Shown here in pieces: positions 47,088 through 54,038 of a stretch of 64,000 nt of DNA. The stretch is taken from contig DASTWL010000012.1 of assembly GCA_035765895.1 (NCBI GenBank), positions 38,565 through 102,564 of the forward strand, in the 5' to 3' direction. Both the position numbers and the translations under genes were made by a program. The notes under the pieces are model-generated. The model saw nothing but the letters and a program-made list of their open reading frames with translations. It made no database searches and had not been told where the DNA came from. Position 1 is the first letter of the stretch. Every line of letters begins with the position of its first letter. Source of the DNA: Verrucomicrobiia bacterium. GTDB taxonomy: Bacteria; Verrucomicrobiota; Verrucomicrobiia; Limisphaerales; DSYF01.

Positions 47088-47405
47088 ATGAATGTCTCAT
47101 CCTTCAAAACCGCCGCTCTGCTGGGCGCGGCCAGTTTGATGCTCGCGCTGTCCGTGGGTTGTGAAGAAAAGAGCCCGACGGAGAAGGCCGTCGAAAAAAC
47201 CAAGTCCGCCGCGCAGGATGCCGGCGACGCCATCAAGAATGCGGCCAAGAAAACCGGGGACGCCGTGAGTGACACCGCCAACCAGGCCTGGGACAAGGTG
47301 AAGGACGGCGCCCATGAAGTCAGCACGGTGGCCACCAATGTGGCGGCGGAAGTCAAGCAAGGTGCCGAGCAGGTGGGCGACAAAATCCAGCAGGCGGTCC
47401 ACTAG
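47088..47405 (+). CDS. small lipoprotein with Ala/Lys-rich helical repeats
   Basis: It has a lipobox (LALSVGC) followed by repetitive amphipathic KxAxDAGDAxK-type segments. Confidence 0.6.
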   Translation: MNVSSFKTAALLGAASLMLALSVGCEEKSPTEKAVEKTKSAAQDAGDAIKNAAKKTGDAVSDTANQAWDKVKDGAHEVSTVATNVAAEVKQGAEQVGDKIQQAVH

Positions 47406-47416
47406 GGCCGCGGCGC

Positions 47417-48040
47417 CTACTTGAAGCGCATCCGGTAATGCTGGTAGCGGTTCATCACCGTCACGACGTAGTTGCTCGTGGTGGGGAAGCCGATCTGGGT
47501 GAGGAATGCCGCGCTGTTCGTCGCCGCCGCACCATTGTTCCAGCGCACCACGTTGCCGCGTCCCGCATTGTAGTCCGCCAGCGCATAGGGCAGGGGATTA
47601 TCCGTCTTTGTGTAACGCTTCAGCAGCTTGGCCAGGTAAAACGTGCCGGCCAGCGTGTTGGTGCGCGGATCAAGGCACAACGCGTGGTTGAAGCCGGTGA
47701 TGTGCTCGGCGTCCGCCCATTCGCCGGCGGCGAGATCCTGGATCTGCATCAGGCCCAGTTCGCCGGCCCGGCCGCGGGCGGCGGGATTGAACCGGCTTTC
47801 ACGCCACACCAGCGCCTTGACCAGTGCGGGTTCCACGCCGTAACGCCGGGCCGCCGCACGAATGGGTTCATCCTGGCTGTGCTCCAGCCGCTCCTGCCAG
47901 CCCCACCAGAGCGCGGCCGGCAGGGCGAGCAGCAACACCGTCACCGTCAGTATCCAGCTTCCTTTCACCGCAGTTTTTTTATCCCGACCTCCCCGGGCAA
48001 TGGAATCCTGAAATACGCGGCGGCGAAAAATGTTTTCCAC
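47417..48040 (-). CDS. lytic transglycosylase (SLT domain)
   Basis: It has an N-terminal anchor. The catalytic region is ALVWRESRFNPAARGRAGELGLMQI, with AGTFYL and YNAG motifs. Confidence 0.85.
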   Translation of the reverse strand: MENIFRRRVFQDSIARGGRDKKTAVKGSWILTVTVLLLALPAALWWGWQERLEHSQDEPIRAAARRYGVEPALVKALVWRESRFNPAARGRAGELGLMQIQDLAAGEWADAEHITGFNHALCLDPRTNTLAGTFYLAKLLKRYTKTDNPLPYALADYNAGRGNVVRWNNGAAATNSAAFLTQIGFPTTSNYVVTVMNRYQHYRMRFK

Positions 48041-48125: not shown

Positions 48126-48398
48126 ATGCCGCAAGCCATCATGGATCCCGGCGAGGTGCGCCGGTTTGCCGAAGAGTTGAAACGCTTCAACCTTGAGTTG
48201 CAGAACCGCATGTCGTTGCTGCAGGCGCGTTTCGCCGCGCTGGGCGACACGTGGTCCGACCAGGAACATGCCAAGTTCGCCGAGGAGTTTCGCGACACGA
48301 TGAAAGTGCTGAAAAAATTCATCGATGCCTCCAACGTCCATACGCCCTTCCTGCTCCGCAAGGCGAAGCGGATTGAGGAATATTTGGATCAGCACTGA
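48126..48398 (+). CDS. WXG100-like small helical protein (W-S-D variant)
   Basis: It is 90 aa with a predicted helix-turn-helix hairpin and a central turn LGDTWSDQEHAKFAEEF. Trp43 sits at mid-length and the aromatic residue at W+8 follows the WxGxxxxx[FY] pattern. Codon third positions look coding. Confidence 0.6.
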   Translation: MPQAIMDPGEVRRFAEELKRFNLELQNRMSLLQARFAALGDTWSDQEHAKFAEEFRDTMKVLKKFIDASNVHTPFLLRKAKRIEEYLDQH

Positions 48399-48503: not shown

Positions 48504-49046
48504 ATGCCCGAACGCGCCCAAGTCACCTCGCTGGAAGCCATCGAAGCCTTTCGCGCCCGCCTGACCATTTATCGCGACAAGGCTGCGCGCGTGCTCGATG
48601 AAGTGGCCGAAGAGGTGAAGCGCACCCGCGTGTGGCTCCAGAGCGATCGCGTTCCGTTTTGGGAGGGCCAGATTCGCCGGCGGCAGAAGGATCTCGAAAT
48701 GCGCCAGCAGGAGCTGTTCAGCGCGCAGCTTTCCGGCATGCGCGATGCATCGTTCGTGCAACAGCAGGCGGTGCAACGCGCCCGGCGCGCGGTGCAGGAG
48801 GCCGAGGACAAGCTGCGTTTGGTCAAGCAGTGGAACCGCCAATACGATCAGCGTGTCGAACCTGCGGGCAAGCAGGCGGAGAAGTTGCGTCACAATCTGG
48901 CGCACGACCTGGGACTGGCCATTGCCCATCTTTCGGAAGTCATCCGGACCCTGGCCGAATACAGTGAAATCCATCCCGCCGCACCGCCTGCTCCACCCGC
49001 GAACGGCGCGGAATCGCCGCCCGCATCGGAAGGAGGCGCCGCATGA
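48504..49046 (+). CDS. helical protein with a W-E-G turn and a Pro/Ala-rich tail
   Basis: It is 180 aa with long heptad-like helices and FWEG at residues 52-55. The C-terminus PAAPPAPPANGAESPPASEGGAA looks disordered. Its stop overlaps the next start (ATGA). Confidence 0.55.
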   Translation: MPERAQVTSLEAIEAFRARLTIYRDKAARVLDEVAEEVKRTRVWLQSDRVPFWEGQIRRRQKDLEMRQQELFSAQLSGMRDASFVQQQAVQRARRAVQEAEDKLRLVKQWNRQYDQRVEPAGKQAEKLRHNLAHDLGLAIAHLSEVIRTLAEYSEIHPAAPPAPPANGAESPPASEGGAA

Positions 49047-49252
49047 CCACGGGAGCGAAGAACAGATTGATTGGCCTCACGAAGGAATTGTCCGCAGATT
49101 GGGCCGTGACCAAGGAATCCTGGCGCGACGCCAAAAGTTTGGAATTTGAAAAACGTTATCTGGAAGACCTGATGGCCGGCGTGAATGCCGCCGTCACCAA
49201 CATTGATGCCCTTGAACGAATCCTCGGAAAAATCCACGACGACTGCCAGTAA
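49043..49252 (+). CDS. WXG100-like small helical protein (W-R-D variant), paralogous to 48126-48398
   Basis: It is 69 aa. ESWRDAKSLEFEKRY aligns with TWSDQEHAKFAEEF of the first protein (W-x-D-x5-F-x3-[FY]). It overlaps the 5' end of the ATPase ORF unless the ATPase starts at TTG 49293 or GTG 49305. Confidence 0.45.
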   Translation: MTTGAKNRLIGLTKELSADWAVTKESWRDAKSLEFEKRYLEDLMAGVNAAVTNIDALERILGKIHDDCQ

Positions 49253-52200
49253 GCTGGCGGGTGCGGGCGAAACCCTGGCGCTCCTGGACCGGTTGCGCCG
49301 CACGGTGCGGGAGACCGTCACGCGCCTGGAACAGGCGGAGCGCGATTACCAGGCGCGGGCCGGCAAGGTGCACGCCCAGTTTGAGCAGGCCATCGAAACC
49401 GAGCGTTCGCGGTGGGCCTCCGAAATGGAGGCGGAGCGCGCCGCCGCCGAAGCCCGGCGCAATGAAATCGAAGTCGCCCATGCCGCGCGCAAAAGCCGGA
49501 TCGCCCGCGCTCTTTCCAATGCGCGTCAGCGCAAGGCCGGTGAAATTGACGCCGAAGAGAGCCGGCACACGTTTGCGATCCAACGCGACCTGCTCGAAGC
49601 CGACCGCGTGCGCGAAGTGGAGGCCAAGGCCAACAAGGACCACTACGAAGCCGTGCAGGCGCGTCTGGCCGACGAGCTGGCCACCATCGAGCAGTTCGAA
49701 GCCCGCTACCGTTCCTCGCTGGGCGCCTATCGTTCGCTGGCCCGCCTGCTTCCCGTCGAATCACCCGCGCCGGAATTACAGCAGGCGCCCGACGCGTTTC
49801 CGCCCGAACCGAAGCTGCTCGAGGAGTTGCAGGCCAAGGTGGACGGAGCGGCGCACGAGCTGGCCCATATTCGCGGCGCCGTGCTGCCGTTGGGCTTCAA
49901 GTTCCTGCCCGTCTGGCTGTGGATCATTCTGCTGCTGGCGGCGCCCTTCATCTTCGTGCCCGCGCTGCGCAAATTCGATTTCCACGCGGCGCCGGTGCCG
50001 CTCGCGCTGGGCCTGGTCGTGGCCGGCCTCGCTTTGATCCTGGGATTGTGGTGGCTGGGCAAGCGGCTCGCCGCGGCGCCGGCCCGGGCGGCGGTCAAGG
50101 CGTTGCAGGAAGCGCGCCGGCTGCACCAGGTCGGTGGCGAAAAGGCCGCCGCGAGCTTTGCCGCCGAGGATGAGCGAATCAAGGTCACGCACGCGAGTGC
50201 GACGACCTTCAACAACAATCTCTGGAAGCAAAAGCAGGTGGAGGCGAAGGCGCTGCATGAGGACTGGGCGGAGCGCTTCGAGAACCGGGCGCGCACGTTG
50301 CGTTCGGCCGCGGACGGCCGGCGGTTGCATCGCCTGACGATGGTGGACCAGGCCCATGCCGAGCGGGTCAACGCCCTGGCCGAACAGTCCTCGGCGCGCA
50401 AGGCGCAGGTTGAGGCAGCCCAGGTCGAAGGTCTCGCCAAACTGGCCGTCGTGCGCGATGAAGCCCGCGCCAGCGCCGAGGCCAACTGGCAGAATCTCGT
50501 GTTGCCGGCCTACCGCGCCCTGCAAGCCGCCGCCGCCGCCGCGGATCAAGCCTTTCCCGCGTGGGAGCCGGCGCTGTGGCAACGCTTCTCCCTGCCGGAA
50601 CAGTTTCCCCATGCCGCCCGCTTCGCCGAACTGGCGGTGGACCTGGAACGGCTGGCTGGCGTGACGCTGGTGGATGACCGTCTCGGGCTGCCGGGGCCGA
50701 AGCGCTTTTCGCAGCCGCTGTTGCTCGATGTGCCCCGGCAGGCATCGCTGCTGTTTGAAACGAAGCAATCCGGCCAGGCACAGGTCGTCGGCGCGCTGAA
50801 CAATCTCGTGCTGCGGCTGTTCACGAGCGCGCCGCCGGGACGGCTGGCGTTCACCATTTTTGACCCGGTCGGGCTGGGCCAGAATTTCGCCGGCATCATG
50901 CATCTGGCCGACTTTGAGGAACGGCTCATCAACAGCCGCATCTGGACGCAGCAGGCGCAGTTCGAGCAGCGGCTGGCAGATCTCAACGAGCACATCGAAA
51001 AGGTCACGCAGATGTATCTGCGCAACGAATACGCGACGCTGGCCGAATACAATGCGCAGGCCGGGCGCATGGCGGAGAAATATCATTTCCTCGTCATCGC
51101 GGATTTTCCCGTGAACTTCAGCGATGTGGCGGTGAAGCGGCTGATGAACATTGCTGCGGCCGGACCACGTTGCGGTGTGCATTTGCTGATCCACTGGGAT
51201 CAACGCCGTCCCGCGCCCGTGGAGTTTGTGCCGGATGAACTCCGTAAGAACGCGATTTGTCTCGTGCCCAAAGGCGAGGGCTTCGCCGTGGCGAACTGTC
51301 CGGCGCTGGAGGCGAAGGACGGTGCGGCCATCTCGGGGGTCAACACCTGGGAGGGCGTCAAGCTCACGCTCGATGCACCGCCGGACGCCGAACTGGCCAC
51401 GCGTTTGTGGCATCAGATTGGGAAGGACAGCATTGATTCCAGCCGGGTGGAAATGCCGTTTGCGGAAGTGGCCCCCGGCCCGGACGAATTCTGGAGCCTC
51501 GACACCACCGGCGAATTGCGCGTGCCGATTGGCCGCACCGGCGCGACCAAGCTGCAATACCTCGCACTCGGCAAAGGCACGCGCCAGCACGCGCTGGTGG
51601 CAGGCAAGACCGGCTCCGGCAAATCCACGCTCTTCCACGTCATCATCACCAACCTCGCGCTCTGGTGCAGTCCCGAGCAGGTCGAGTTTTACCTTGTGGA
51701 TTTCAAGAAGGGCGTCGAGTTCAAGTGCTACGCCACGCAAAAACTGCCGCACGCCCGCGTCATTGCCATTGAGAGCGACCGCGAGTTTGGCTTGAGCGTG
51801 TTGCAGCGCCTCGATGAGGAACTGAAGCGTCGCGGTGATTTGTTCCGCAAGCTGGGCGCCCAGGACATTGCCGGTTACAAACGCGCGGGCGGCACGGAGC
51901 CGATGCCGCGTGTGCTGCTGCTGATTGACGAGTTTCAGGAGCTGTTCGTCGAGGACGACCGCGTGTCGCAGGGGGCGTCGTTGCTGCTCGACCGCATCGT
52001 GCGCCAGGGGCGCGCCTTCGGCATTCATGTCATCCTCGGTTCGCAGACATTGGGAGGCGCCTACACGCTGGCACGGGCGACCATCGGGCAAATGGTGGTC
52101 CGCATCGCGCTCCAGTGCAACGAGGCGGACGCCTACCTCATCATGAACGAGGACAATCCCGCGCCGCGGCTGCTCTCGCGTCCGGGCGAGGCGATTTACA

Positions 52201-53183
52201 ACGACGATGCCGGCGCGATTCAGGGCAACAGCCCGTTCCAGGTGGTCTGGTTGCCGGACCAGGAACGCGACCAGTGGCTGGAGCGGGCGCACCGAATTTC
52301 TGCCGGGACCACCGCGCGCGTGCCGATTGTTTTCGAGGGTAACGCGCCGGCCGATGTGCGGGAAAATCCCCTGTTGCGCGCGGCACTGGCGCAACCGGCA
52401 AAAGCCGCGGCGACCGCGCCGCACGTGTGGCTCGGCGCGCCCAATTCCATCAAGGGGCCGACTGAAGCCGTGTTCCGTCGGGCCAGCGGCAATCATCTGC
52501 TTGTCGTCGGTCAGCGCGACGAGGCGGCGCTGGCGATGCTGGGCATTGCCCTGGTGTCGCTGGCGGCGCAACAGCCCAAAACGGCAGCGCGATTCTTCGT
52601 GTTCGATTGCAGCGCGCCGGATGCCGCGGAGGCCCGGTTCCTGGAGCGCGTCATCGCGGCGGTGCCGCACGCCGTAAGGCTCGTCCGTCCGGGCGACGTG
52701 GACGAGGTCATGGCCGCGCTGGCCGGCGAACAGCAACGGCGCGCGGATGGCGGCGGGGCGGACGCGCCGGAAACGTATCTGCTCGTGCACGGGTTGCAGC
52801 GCAACAAGAAGCTGCGCTTCGATGAGGAAATGAGCTTTTCCATGGATGCCGACGCGGGTGCGAATCCGGGGTTGCAGTTCAACAAGCTGATTTGCGAGGG
52901 AGCGGGGCTGGGCTTCCACGTCATCGCCACCTGCGACACCTACAACAACCTCATGCGCATGCTGAGCCGGAAGGCGGTCAGCGAATTCGAGATGCGCGTG
53001 GTGTTCCAGATGAGCGCGAACGACTCGGCGAGCCTGATTGAATCGCCACAGGCCAACAACCTTGGCCTGCATCGCGCCCTGTTCTACAACGGCCACGAGG
53101 GCTGGCTGGAGACGTTCCGCCCCTATGCCTTGCCCGACGATGTCTGGGTGCAGGGCGTGCGCGAACAACTGGCAGCGACGTGA
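49185..53183 (+). CDS. membrane-anchored FtsK/SpoIIIE-family ATPase with three FtsK-like modules (EssC/EccC-like)
   Basis: Up to 1332 aa. Layout: coiled coil, two TM helices (about 49880-50060), a second coiled coil, then three FtsK-like modules. Only the middle module has an intact Walker A (GKTGSGKST, about 51603) and Walker B (LLLIDEFQ, about 51915). The first (ETKQSGQAQ / FLVIADF) and third (LLVVGQRDEA / LLVHGLQ) are degenerate. The start is uncertain: 49185, 49206, 49293 or 49305. Confidence 0.85.
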   Translation: MPPSPTLMPLNESSEKSTTTASKLAGAGETLALLDRLRRTVRETVTRLEQAERDYQARAGKVHAQFEQAIETERSRWASEMEAERAAAEARRNEIEVAHAARKSRIARALSNARQRKAGEIDAEESRHTFAIQRDLLEADRVREVEAKANKDHYEAVQARLADELATIEQFEARYRSSLGAYRSLARLLPVESPAPELQQAPDAFPPEPKLLEELQAKVDGAAHELAHIRGAVLPLGFKFLPVWLWIILLLAAPFIFVPALRKFDFHAAPVPLALGLVVAGLALILGLWWLGKRLAAAPARAAVKALQEARRLHQVGGEKAAASFAAEDERIKVTHASATTFNNNLWKQKQVEAKALHEDWAERFENRARTLRSAADGRRLHRLTMVDQAHAERVNALAEQSSARKAQVEAAQVEGLAKLAVVRDEARASAEANWQNLVLPAYRALQAAAAAADQAFPAWEPALWQRFSLPEQFPHAARFAELAVDLERLAGVTLVDDRLGLPGPKRFSQPLLLDVPRQASLLFETKQSGQAQVVGALNNLVLRLFTSAPPGRLAFTIFDPVGLGQNFAGIMHLADFEERLINSRIWTQQAQFEQRLADLNEHIEKVTQMYLRNEYATLAEYNAQAGRMAEKYHFLVIADFPVNFSDVAVKRLMNIAAAGPRCGVHLLIHWDQRRPAPVEFVPDELRKNAICLVPKGEGFAVANCPALEAKDGAAISGVNTWEGVKLTLDAPPDAELATRLWHQIGKDSIDSSRVEMPFAEVAPGPDEFWSLDTTGELRVPIGRTGATKLQYLALGKGTRQHALVAGKTGSGKSTLFHVIITNLALWCSPEQVEFYLVDFKKGVEFKCYATQKLPHARVIAIESDREFGLSVLQRLDEELKRRGDLFRKLGAQDIAGYKRAGGTEPMPRVLLLIDEFQELFVEDDRVSQGASLLLDRIVRQGRAFGIHVILGSQTLGGAYTLARATIGQMVVRIALQCNEADAYLIMNEDNPAPRLLSRPGEAIYNDDAGAIQGNSPFQVVWLPDQERDQWLERAHRISAGTTARVPIVFEGNAPADVRENPLLRAALAQPAKAAATAPHVWLGAPNSIKGPTEAVFRRASGNHLLVVGQRDEAALAMLGIALVSLAAQQPKTAARFFVFDCSAPDAAEARFLERVIAAVPHAVRLVRPGDVDEVMAALAGEQQRRADGGGADAPETYLLVHGLQRNKKLRFDEEMSFSMDADAGANPGLQFNKLICEGAGLGFHVIATCDTYNNLMRMLSRKAVSEFEMRVVFQMSANDSASLIESPQANNLGLHRALFYNGHEGWLETFRPYALPDDVWVQGVREQLAAT

Positions 53184-53192
53184 GCGAACGCT

Positions 53193-54038
53193 TCAGCGTG
53201 GCCGCGTGGCCCGTTCTTGAAGCCAGGTGATGTCCGGGTTGTTCGGCGAGGCGAAGAGGTCGTTCACAAATCCATCCCGGACCAGCGGCGGCGTCGTGCG
53301 GGGGTCGCGCCACTTCTTGATTTCCGAATGCCCGTCGGCGAAGGAGAAGCCGCAGGCGCCGTTGTGGTAAATTCCAGGCAAATCCCAGAAGACATACCGC
53401 TCGGGCTGATTGGGCCAGCCGCTCATGTTCACGCACAGGTTGCCCATATCGATGCTGTCCTCGCGCATGTCGAGCAGCACGAACATCATCGAAGGCGGCG
53501 GGTCGTTGATGTCGGAAAACTTCAGGTAGATGCGGTAATTGCTGATTTGCGGTCCCCAATTGCCGTCGGTGCCGCCCCAGCCGCCGAGATAGACATTCAT
53601 CGACATGCTGCGCACGCGCGGTTTGGCTTCGCCGTTGACGATGACCTTGGAGGTGTCCGCCGGGCAGCGCCAGATGCTGAGGTTCTGGCCGCAGTAGGGC
53701 CAGAGCGGGCTTTTCTTGATGCTGACATCGGGATCCCAGTTGGCGCGGTTCGCGGGGTTGTAGTCCAACGTGCCGGTGACCCATGCGTAAGGGTAGGTAT
53801 CGGGGAGCCAGGGCGCTTCGCTCGCGTAGGGGAGCAGATCGTGGTTGTCCTCGGCATACATCCGCCAGGCCAGCGCGAGCTGGCGGTGATTGTTCATGCA
53901 GTAAATGCCCTGGGCCTTTTGTTTGGCGCGATTCAAGGTCGGGAGGAGCAGCGCCGCCAGAATGCCAATGATCACAATGACGACCAGCAGCTCGATGAGC
54001 GTGAAGCCGGCCGAATTGGACAACTTGGGGCAGCGCAT
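53193..54038 (-). CDS. DUF1559 protein with prepilin-type N-terminal cleavage/methylation signal (H-X9-DG type)
   Basis: The N-terminus is [23 protein letters not shown]. The C-terminal motif [13 protein letters not shown] is typical of the large PVC paralog family. Confidence 0.88.

Follow-up and report, generated by a model that had tools for sequence, protein, structure and literature searches.

A three-module FtsK/SpoIIIE-type ATPase encoded next to WXG100-like proteins in a Verrucomicrobiia bacterium: a putative motor of a small type VII-like system

What is the function of a membrane ATPase in which three FtsK-like modules stand in a row and only the middle one carries catalytic motifs? 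This question is raised by a gene in a 64,000-nucleotide stretch of the genome of a Verrucomicrobiia bacterium (assembly GCA_035765895.1, contig DASTWL010000012.1, positions 38,565 to 102,564 of the forward strand), which we call the window and in which all positions below are counted unless another sequence is named. Here, we compared the ATPase, encoded by the open reading frame (ORF) 49185..53183 (+), and the genes around it with their relatives and with known systems. The reading that we favour, with moderate confidence when it is taken as a whole, is that the protein would serve as the motor in a small type VII-like system linked to WXG100, that is, a ring powered by module 2, with modules 1 and 3 for docking or regulation, a helical stalk, and small hairpin proteins as the exported cargo.

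Proteins of this kind have been described before. Zhang et al. (2012; PMC3482391, footnote 6 of Table 1) listed a YueA-like ATPase with three FtsK domains, only the middle one active, which is accompanied by a solo WXG gene and occurs in verrucomicrobia and other Gram-negative bacteria; they treated it as a distinct ATPase type and called such systems mobile versions of type VII secretion systems (T7SS). According to a review from 2023, clusters of WXG100 and FtsK/SpoIIIE genes do occur in Gram-negative bacteria, but a secretory function has yet to be confirmed for them (PMC10765036), and a paper from 2024 that surveyed new T7SS variants is confined to Gram-positive phyla (PMC11217815). Our literature search turned up no experiments on the verrucomicrobial system. 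The window ATPase is a member of this described, experimentally untouched family, and what is new here is the four-gene operon, the lineage-specific N-terminus, the plasmid-borne core that crosses phyla, the likely start codon and the very large size of the family.

The ORF 49185..53183 is a genuine gene, with a codon-position composition of the coding type and a GC content at third codon positions of 0.82. Residues of the ATPase are numbered here from ATG 49185. Its C-terminal part consists of module 1 (aa 490-765, 50652..51479, +), module 2 (aa 766-1045, 51480..52319, +) and module 3 (aa 1046-1332, 52320..53180, +). Module 2 is a canonical FtsK/SpoIIIE ATPase domain resembling the D1 domain of the T7SS ATPases EccC and EssC, module 1 a degenerate FtsK-like P-loop fold that has neither GK[ST] nor a catalytic Glu, and module 3 a degenerate FtsK-like domain. 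The Pfam family FtsK_SpoIIIE (PF01580) is matched above threshold once, by aa 783-955 of module 2 (E 4e-31); module 1 alone reaches a sub-threshold E of 0.008 with this family, and NCBIfam and Pfam scans of modules 1 and 3 alone gave nothing significant. PDB profile searches with modules 1 and 3 returned weak EssC and EccC5 matches (E 0.2 and 0.0017). That all three modules are related, as the initial annotation had proposed, was borne out by hhalign on an alignment of 155 diverse family members (module 3 with module 2, 97.7%, E 1e-12; module 1 with module 3, 96.4%, E 1e-9), by the predicted fold and by a colinear match to EccC D1-D3, described below. An AlphaFold2 model of aa 477-1332, built with 58 diverse homologs (mean predicted local distance difference test score, pLDDT, 91.1; predicted template modelling score 0.85), contains three strand-helix-strand domains of the P-loop type; an earlier run with 27 close homologs had been poor (pLDDT 53.7). 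At the P-loop site, the model has a strand (522-526), a four-residue loop (KQSG) and a helix (531-548) in module 1, the loop K-T-G-S-G followed by K813 in module 2, and a three-residue loop (GQR) in module 3, which lies mostly above pLDDT 85 and includes one short loop of low confidence.

Only module 2 keeps the motifs for ATP binding and hydrolysis, and this statement of the initial annotation now extends to the family, since modules 1 and 3 lack functional Walker motifs in all 155 aligned members, on which all motif counts rest. In module 2, the Walker A motif AGKTGSGKST (aa 806-815, 51600..51629, +) has invariant G807, T809, G810, G812, K813 and S814, and in the Walker B motif VLLLIDE (aa 910-916, 51912..51932, +) D915 is found in 154 and E916 in all 155 members; the family forms AGKTGSGKST, hhhhDEFQ and the block RQGRAFGIH...GSQ are essentially invariant. 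Module 1 has S-L-L-h-E-[TA]-x-x-x-G-R without GK[ST], and FLV[IV]ADFP without a following Glu. Module 3 has LL[IV]VGQ[RQN][DE]EA without Lys and [FY]LL[VI]hGLQR without an acidic residue (LLVVGQRDEA and YLLVHGLQR in the window protein). Since the P-loop Lys and the catalytic acid are missing from both modules in every member, and yet both are conserved about as strongly as module 2, they are best described, on this pattern of conservation, as constrained and presumably functional pseudo-ATPase domains. At residue 531 (50775..50777), within the degenerate P-loop of module 1, 120 of the 155 members have Arg (the G-R of the motif) and the window protein has Gln; in the DUF domain of EccC5, R227, an Arg of the degenerate Walker A, makes a structural salt bridge (PMC11154593).

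Which of the characterised motors stands closest to this ATPase? Module 2 scored 119.7 bits with EccCa (D1 region), 119.5 with EssC, 80.9 with EccCb and 38 with FtsK. In an hhalign comparison with profiles of D1, D2, D3 and DUF cut from nine EssC-like proteins, its best match was D1 (99.9%, E 9e-33). When the AlphaFold2 model was compared with the PDB by Foldseek, the first match was D1-D3 of Thermomonospora curvata EccC (4nh0; E 2e-31 over 966 columns), with the three modules colinear; EccC and EssC D2-D3 fragments came next, and FtsK motors followed with E 1e-15 over one module. The view that the protein resembles EccC and EssC and is not a DNA translocase is upheld by this domain-wise comparison of profiles and structures, as translocases with a gamma domain are not the closest relatives. 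That the protein pumps DNA in the manner of FtsK/SpoIIIE, TraB or TcpA, in chromosome segregation or conjugative transfer, is in our view very improbable. The Pfam FtsK_SpoIIIE domain, the source-database label 'DNA segregation ATPase', the FtsK motor domains and the TcpA coupling protein among the structural matches, and the relatives on plasmids, one of them conjugative, do speak for it. However, neither the FtsK gamma (PF09397) nor the alpha domain (PF17854) was detected in the ATPase at E<=1, and its C-terminus is the degenerate module 3. Three tandem modules, two of them degenerate, are moreover unlike FtsK, TraB or TcpA, the score with FtsK is far below the roughly 120 bits obtained with EccC/EssC D1, the conserved partners are WXG-like hairpins rather than relaxase or DNA-processing genes, and the window gene lies in a core chromosomal context.

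The initial annotation had called the layout unusual, which does not hold. EccC and EssC have four cytosolic globular domains, the DUF and three FtsK/SpoIIIE domains, as compared with the three ATPase-type modules found here; in EccC only D1 is fully canonical, it is preceded by the DUF, a degenerate ATPase-like domain needed for secretion, and degenerate regulatory domains follow (PMC11154593). The order degenerate-active-degenerate is the T7SS pattern minus one domain, and the layout itself was described in 2012 (PMC3482391). Is the protein, then, an EccC that lost a C-terminal module, as had also been suggested? Such a truncated EccC/EssC orthologue would be a DUF-D1-D2 protein with D3 lost and the forkhead-associated (FHA) domains replaced. 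Its domain order behind the transmembrane (TM) pair would match, module 2 is nearest to D1, and module 3 is nearest to D2 (97.1%; D1, 96.1%) and does not match D3. On the other hand, module 1 matches D2 (83%) and D1 (69%) weakly and shows no specific similarity to the DUF (1%). The module 3 remnant 'VGQRDEA' aligns best, though weakly, with the EccC5 DUF remnant 'VGEREQV', so one-to-one orthology with DUF-D1-D2 is doubtful; the core of three modules spans phyla with different N-termini, and PMC3482391 classed the protein as a distinct ATPase type. We thus regard truncation as improbable. Since this core of three modules stands behind other N-termini in relatives from plasmids and from Helicobacter, the family looks like a separate lineage of three-domain ATPases, not a truncated EccC.

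The part in front of the modules is a helical region, a TM hairpin and a second helical region. Hydropathy places TM1 at aa 237-259 and TM2 at aa 270-292 (49893..50060, +), with Kyte-Doolittle peaks of 2.5 and 2.4, and a similar hydrophobic block is present in 142 of 146 family representatives (median start at residue 216, median span 58 aa), which bears out the two TM helices noted initially. The loop between them, of about 10 residues, is predicted to lie outside, and six Lys or Arg residues follow TM2. Given the two TM segments with a short loop, and the stretch rich in Lys and Arg behind the second, both ends of the protein, ~230 aa at the N-terminus and ~1040 aa at the C-terminus, should be cytoplasmic, in an N-in/C-in hairpin.

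The helical regions measure about 215 aa before the hairpin (aa 20-232, 49242..49880, +; assigned by composition and a heptad test) and about 190 aa after it (aa 296-489, 50070..50651, +; 26% Ala), and both are rich in Ala, Glu and Arg and poor in Pro and Gly. Heptad periodicity was assessed with a crude test made for this analysis, which gives z values against shuffled sequences. In the window ATPase the N-terminal region reached a modest z=2.2 and the post-TM region z=0.5, which is not above shuffles; among 30 family members the medians were 2.6 and 3.9, respectively, both above shuffles. Both flanking regions are therefore likely to be helical, probably as coiled coils. Of the coiled coils that the initial annotation had placed on both sides of the TM pair, the N-terminal one is modestly supported in the window protein and both by the family medians, while the post-TM one finds no support in the window protein itself. 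Sequence conservation of the N-terminal region is low (25-30%) and its length is kept across the family. In an hhalign comparison, the two regions matched each other at 91.5% (E 9e-7), as against 18% for a reversed control and at most 0.1% for column-shuffled controls, which may point to a duplication within the protein, with one copy on each side of the TM pair. No ATPase profile matched the ~190 aa that separate TM2 from module 1. This helical-TM-TM-helical N-terminus is a feature of the whole verrucomicrobial subfamily and a lineage-specific variant, since the same three-module core occurs in other phyla with other N-termini. The long helical region that was proposed to stand in place of FHA domains is thus real, but specific to this subfamily.

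The ATPase gene is the last of four tightly packed genes on the same strand, which form a conserved operon, as judged from gene order in related genomes. The first (48126..48398, +) encodes a 90-aa protein of the WXG100 family and of the HP0062 type, the second (48504..49046, +) a protein of 180 aa with a Pro/Ala-rich C-terminal tail, here p180, which is a conserved upstream gene, and the third (49043..49252, +) a protein of 69 aa, p69, which in the family alignment shows a W-x-D motif, closes with a conserved K-I-R-x-D-C-E and is probably a short helical hairpin. The stop codon of p180 overlaps the start of p69 by 4 nt (ATGA). We surveyed the neighbours, within ±8 kb, of 80 related loci in species-representative genomes, the best 80 of at least 586 relatives. 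The three upstream genes were found there in the same order, WXG100 at 71, p180 at 73 and p69 at 73 of the 80 loci, and most loci that have no upstream genes hold little or no upstream sequence. Unbiased clustering of the neighbours revealed nothing else in more than 14 of the 80 loci. Within the operon only the ATPase has TM segments; p180 has none.

The 90-aa protein matches Pfam WXG100 (PF06013) with 32.8 bits (gathering score 27.3). Its family profile matches Helicobacter pylori HP0062 best in the PDB (3fx7/2gts, E 1e-8, full length), followed by EsxB (4j42 and related entries), and in the bend of the hairpin it has an invariant W43-x-D45 (W-S-D in the window) where WXG100 proteins have W-x-G. 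HP0062 is an ESAT-6-like protein with WRD at this place and is encoded near an FtsK/SpoIIIE gene (PMC3397514). Among the four proteins, conservation across the 80 loci is highest for the WXG100 protein, with 69-93% identity. Matches of p69 to Pfam WXG100 are weak and occur in 7 of 20 members (best E 9e-4), and the window copy has none; it is on the W-x-D motif and on these matches that we call p69 probably WXG-like. Profile comparisons of p69 and of p180 with the 90-aa protein were not significant, neither p69 nor p180 has a significant Pfam or PDB family, and p180 shows no similarity to the H. pylori gene of 187 aa upstream of HP0062.

The close packing of p69 and the ATPase gene bears on the start codon, which the initial annotation had left open between ATG 49185, ATG 49206, TTG 49293 and GTG 49305. 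Because several homologs begin with 'MPLNxSSxKS', which in the window equals ATG 49206, and because TTG 49293 or GTG 49305 would delete the conserved residues 20-36, ATG 49206 is the most likely start and the TTG and GTG codons are disfavoured. With this start the gene spans 49206..53183 (+) and encodes 1325 aa (1332 aa from ATG 49185). Family conservation begins at about residue 19. An identical protein from a metagenome-assembled genome (MAG) of Verrucomicrobiae is present at NCBI, labelled only 'FtsK/SpoIIIE domain-containing protein', and also starts at ATG 49206. From ATG 49206 the gene shares 47 nt (49206..49252) with p69 in a different frame, and ATPase codons 1 to about 15 lie over the conserved p69 C-terminus (…KIHDDCQ). 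Many homologs begin instead with a Met that lines up with residues 18-19, a place at which the window lacks a start codon.

How far does this arrangement extend? An exhaustive phmmer search with aa 233-1332 retrieved 3066 representative clusters at E<=1e-30, the best 150 matches being nearly all of ~1300 aa, matched over most of their length and 42-59% identical. Relatives were confirmed in at least 586 species-level genomes, and the best 80 of them belong nearly all to Verrucomicrobiota (Pedosphaera, Limisphaerales). Twelve loci (L001, L003, L007, L012, L014, L039, L045, L050, L058, L059, L076, L077) have titles naming other taxa, such as 'uncultured Bifidobacterium', 'Klebsiella' or a 'Chitinophaga pinensis' MAG; such contigs, which carry an operon of the verrucomicrobial type, are probably mislabelled bins.

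The three-module core itself reaches beyond Verrucomicrobiota, with matches on plasmids of Rhodococcus, Deinococcus, Caballeronia and Helicobacter. On a conjugative plasmid of Rhodococcus sp. AH-ZY2 (L082, 4489..8457) a 1322-aa homolog is 30% identical over aa 531-1312 (E 5e-97); it begins with a TerD domain (Pfam E 4e-19), and genes for W-x-D hairpin proteins of 87 and 73 aa lie downstream, the smaller of the two having W-R-D. It sits among TerD and DUF475 genes of the tellurite-resistance type, a setting that suggests a link to stress response. A Deinococcus plasmid carries a 947-aa homolog with two WXG100-like genes downstream. In the H. pylori sequence CP122955.1 (L081, 8001..13242) the ATPase near HP0062 is split into ORFs of 247 and 485 aa with stops in all frames between them, and in this strain it is probably a pseudogene. 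One ORF aligns with module 1 (E 3e-4) and another with module 2 and the beginning of module 3 (29% identity, E 3e-46), a match that covers the degenerate 'HLLVV[GS]Q' site (HLLVVSQ). The same HP0062 cluster contains a WHH nuclease-toxin gene, a SUKH/SMI1 immunity gene and a gene for a 490-aa protein with an HP0062-like N-terminus. From these alignments, the same three-module core occurs across phyla, plasmid-borne and with differing N-termini.

Does the system secrete? Its function is probably to export WXG-like proteins through the inner membrane, but several observations weigh against this. The family is known from sequence, and secretion has never been demonstrated for any member. The ATPase falls far below the NCBIfam cut-offs for T7SS equivalogs (115 vs 509 bits for TIGR03924, 95 vs 347 for TIGR03925, 85 vs 778 for TIGR03928). 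In the 90-aa protein the Gly of W-x-G is replaced by Asp, and the canonical YxxxD/E export signal was not seen at the C-termini of the small proteins. The 69-93% identity of the WXG100 protein exceeds the 49-67% best-segment identity of the ATPase at most full-length loci, which is odd for an effector that is secreted and would suit a machine part or a cytoplasmic partner just as well. TM segments are absent from the homologous ATPases of Deinococcus, Rhodococcus and H. pylori, and it is therefore not evident that translocation across a membrane is common to the whole family. Finally, neither an outer-membrane component nor any other membrane partner recurs near the operon in the 80 loci; the system would thus at best reach the periplasm of a diderm cell.

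Some of these points would also be expected if the ATPase were a membrane-tethered motor for remodelling or signalling, with the WXG-like hairpins acting as cytoplasmic adaptors, regulators or chaperones, for example in stress response or conflict. Besides the very strong conservation of the WXG100 partner, the missing outer-membrane component and the homologs without TM segments, such a non-secretory role would suit the TerD domain and TerD neighbours of the Rhodococcus homolog, the verrucomicrobial operon, in which no toxin or immunity genes were found, and the chaperone or adaptor role raised for HP0062 (PMC3397514). Nevertheless, every one of the characterised proteins nearest to module 2 is a secretion ATPase, a T7SS is defined by its pairing of WXG100 with an FtsK/SpoIIIE ATPase, and the H. 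pylori cluster has a WHH toxin and a SUKH immunity gene, like T7SS toxin loci. PADLOC gave only generic P-loop matches, and a defence-system reading was dropped. We consider a non-secretory role a serious but unlikely explanation.

If the ATPase is the motor of a type VII-like system, as we favour, it may work as follows. It would assemble at the inner membrane into a ring, probably a hexamer, as EccC and EssC do. Module 2 would hydrolyse ATP and supply the energy, and modules 1 and 3 would have structural, regulatory or substrate-docking roles. The long helical segments could drive oligomerisation and act as a stalk, replacing the FHA domains as well as the absent EccB/D/E or EssA/B/EsaA partners. 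The 90-aa WXG100 protein and the 69-aa W-x-D protein, and possibly p180, would be the substrates or co-substrates that cross the inner membrane into the periplasm. A bolder version, which we put forward tentatively and think rather unlikely as it stands, is a minimal and self-sufficient type VII-like translocon of a diderm, in which one polypeptide would be channel, scaffold and motor and no EccB/D/E- or EssA/B-like partner would take part. Here, the TM hairpin would provide the channel (12 helices per hexamer), the paired helical regions around it, possibly derived from an internal duplication, would form the scaffold, and the highly conserved pair of W-x-D hairpin proteins would be exported to the periplasm.

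If such a minimal translocon exists, no simpler form of the T7SS principle would be known, and it would be the first functional one in Gram-negatives. If the system exports at all, it would offer a minimal model for an EccC-type motor working without its usual partners, and would extend T7SS-like secretion to diderm environmental bacteria. With four genes and a single membrane protein, the window holds the most compact form of the Gram-negative cluster of WXG100 and FtsK/SpoIIIE genes, and among Verrucomicrobiota this cluster is both common and strongly conserved, being found in at least 586 species-level genomes.

The remaining neighbours in the window are less informative. In the window and at the 80 loci the flanks are core chromosomal and not conserved, with no integrase or transposase seen; the S41 protease, the pilin-like gene and the gene with an SLT domain are neighbours that lack conservation in related loci. 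T7SSb recruits the hydrolase EssH. The SLT lytic transglycosylase gene (47417..48040, -; Pfam E 2e-22), divergent from the WXG100 operon, was considered as a wall-hydrolase partner of this kind and rejected; tblastn found it at 0 of the 80 loci, and it is probably a chance neighbour. Downstream, the convergent gene 53193..54038 (-) ends 9 nt past the ATPase stop and encodes a prepilin-type methylation motif at the N-terminus and a DUF1559 region; matching sequence occurs somewhere in the flanks of 11 of the 80 loci. Between the S41 protease and SLT genes, the ORF 47088..47405 (+) encodes 105 aa with a lipoprotein-like N-terminus (…LALSVGC) and weak YtxH-like similarity, and is absent from related loci.

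With the FtsK/SpoIIIE DNA translocases the window ATPase shares the P-loop family of module 2 (PF01580), and this module can be superposed on the FtsK motor, but gamma and alpha domains are lacking, there are three modules, two of them inactive, and only two TM helices, and the similarity is much lower than to the T7SS ATPases. With EccC of T7SSa and EssC/YukB of T7SSb it has in common the TM pair, tandem domains of the FtsK/SpoIIIE type, the linkage to a WXG100 gene, and a canonical domain (D1, corresponding to module 2) behind a degenerate ATPase-like one and followed by degenerate ones; examples of these ATPases are T. curvata EccC (4nh0, 4n1a), Mycobacterium tuberculosis EccC5 (7np7, 8rin) and Geobacillus thermodenitrificans EssC (4lya, 5fv0). 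It differs in having three P-loop-type domains, not four, and a helical N-terminus of ~215 aa and a helical stalk of ~190 aa instead of FHA domains. The host is a diderm Gram-negative, and the operon includes no EccB/D/E, MycP, EssA/B or EsaA/B; Pfam scans of the window neighbours found none of EccB/D/E, MycP and EssA/EssB/EsaA/EsaB, nor was any of them conserved among the 80 loci.

The H. pylori system resembles ours in its small protein, HP0062, with which the 90-aa protein aligns over its full length and has the W-x-D bend in common. Its ATPase, however, has neither TM segments nor the helical N-terminus and is split by stops in the strain examined, and its cluster has the WHH toxin, the SUKH immunity gene and separate coiled-coil proteins, but no p180 homolog. 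The closest counterpart is the type described in footnote 6 of PMC3482391, with which the window agrees in having three FtsK-type domains, Walker A and B only in the middle one, an adjacent solo WXG gene and a verrucomicrobial host. The remark there on mobility is consistent with the distant relatives on plasmids, whereas the window and the 80 loci have no conserved mobile-element neighbours. Beyond that description, the present analysis adds the helical-TM-TM-helical N-terminus, the conserved genes for p180 and p69, and how large the verrucomicrobial subfamily is.

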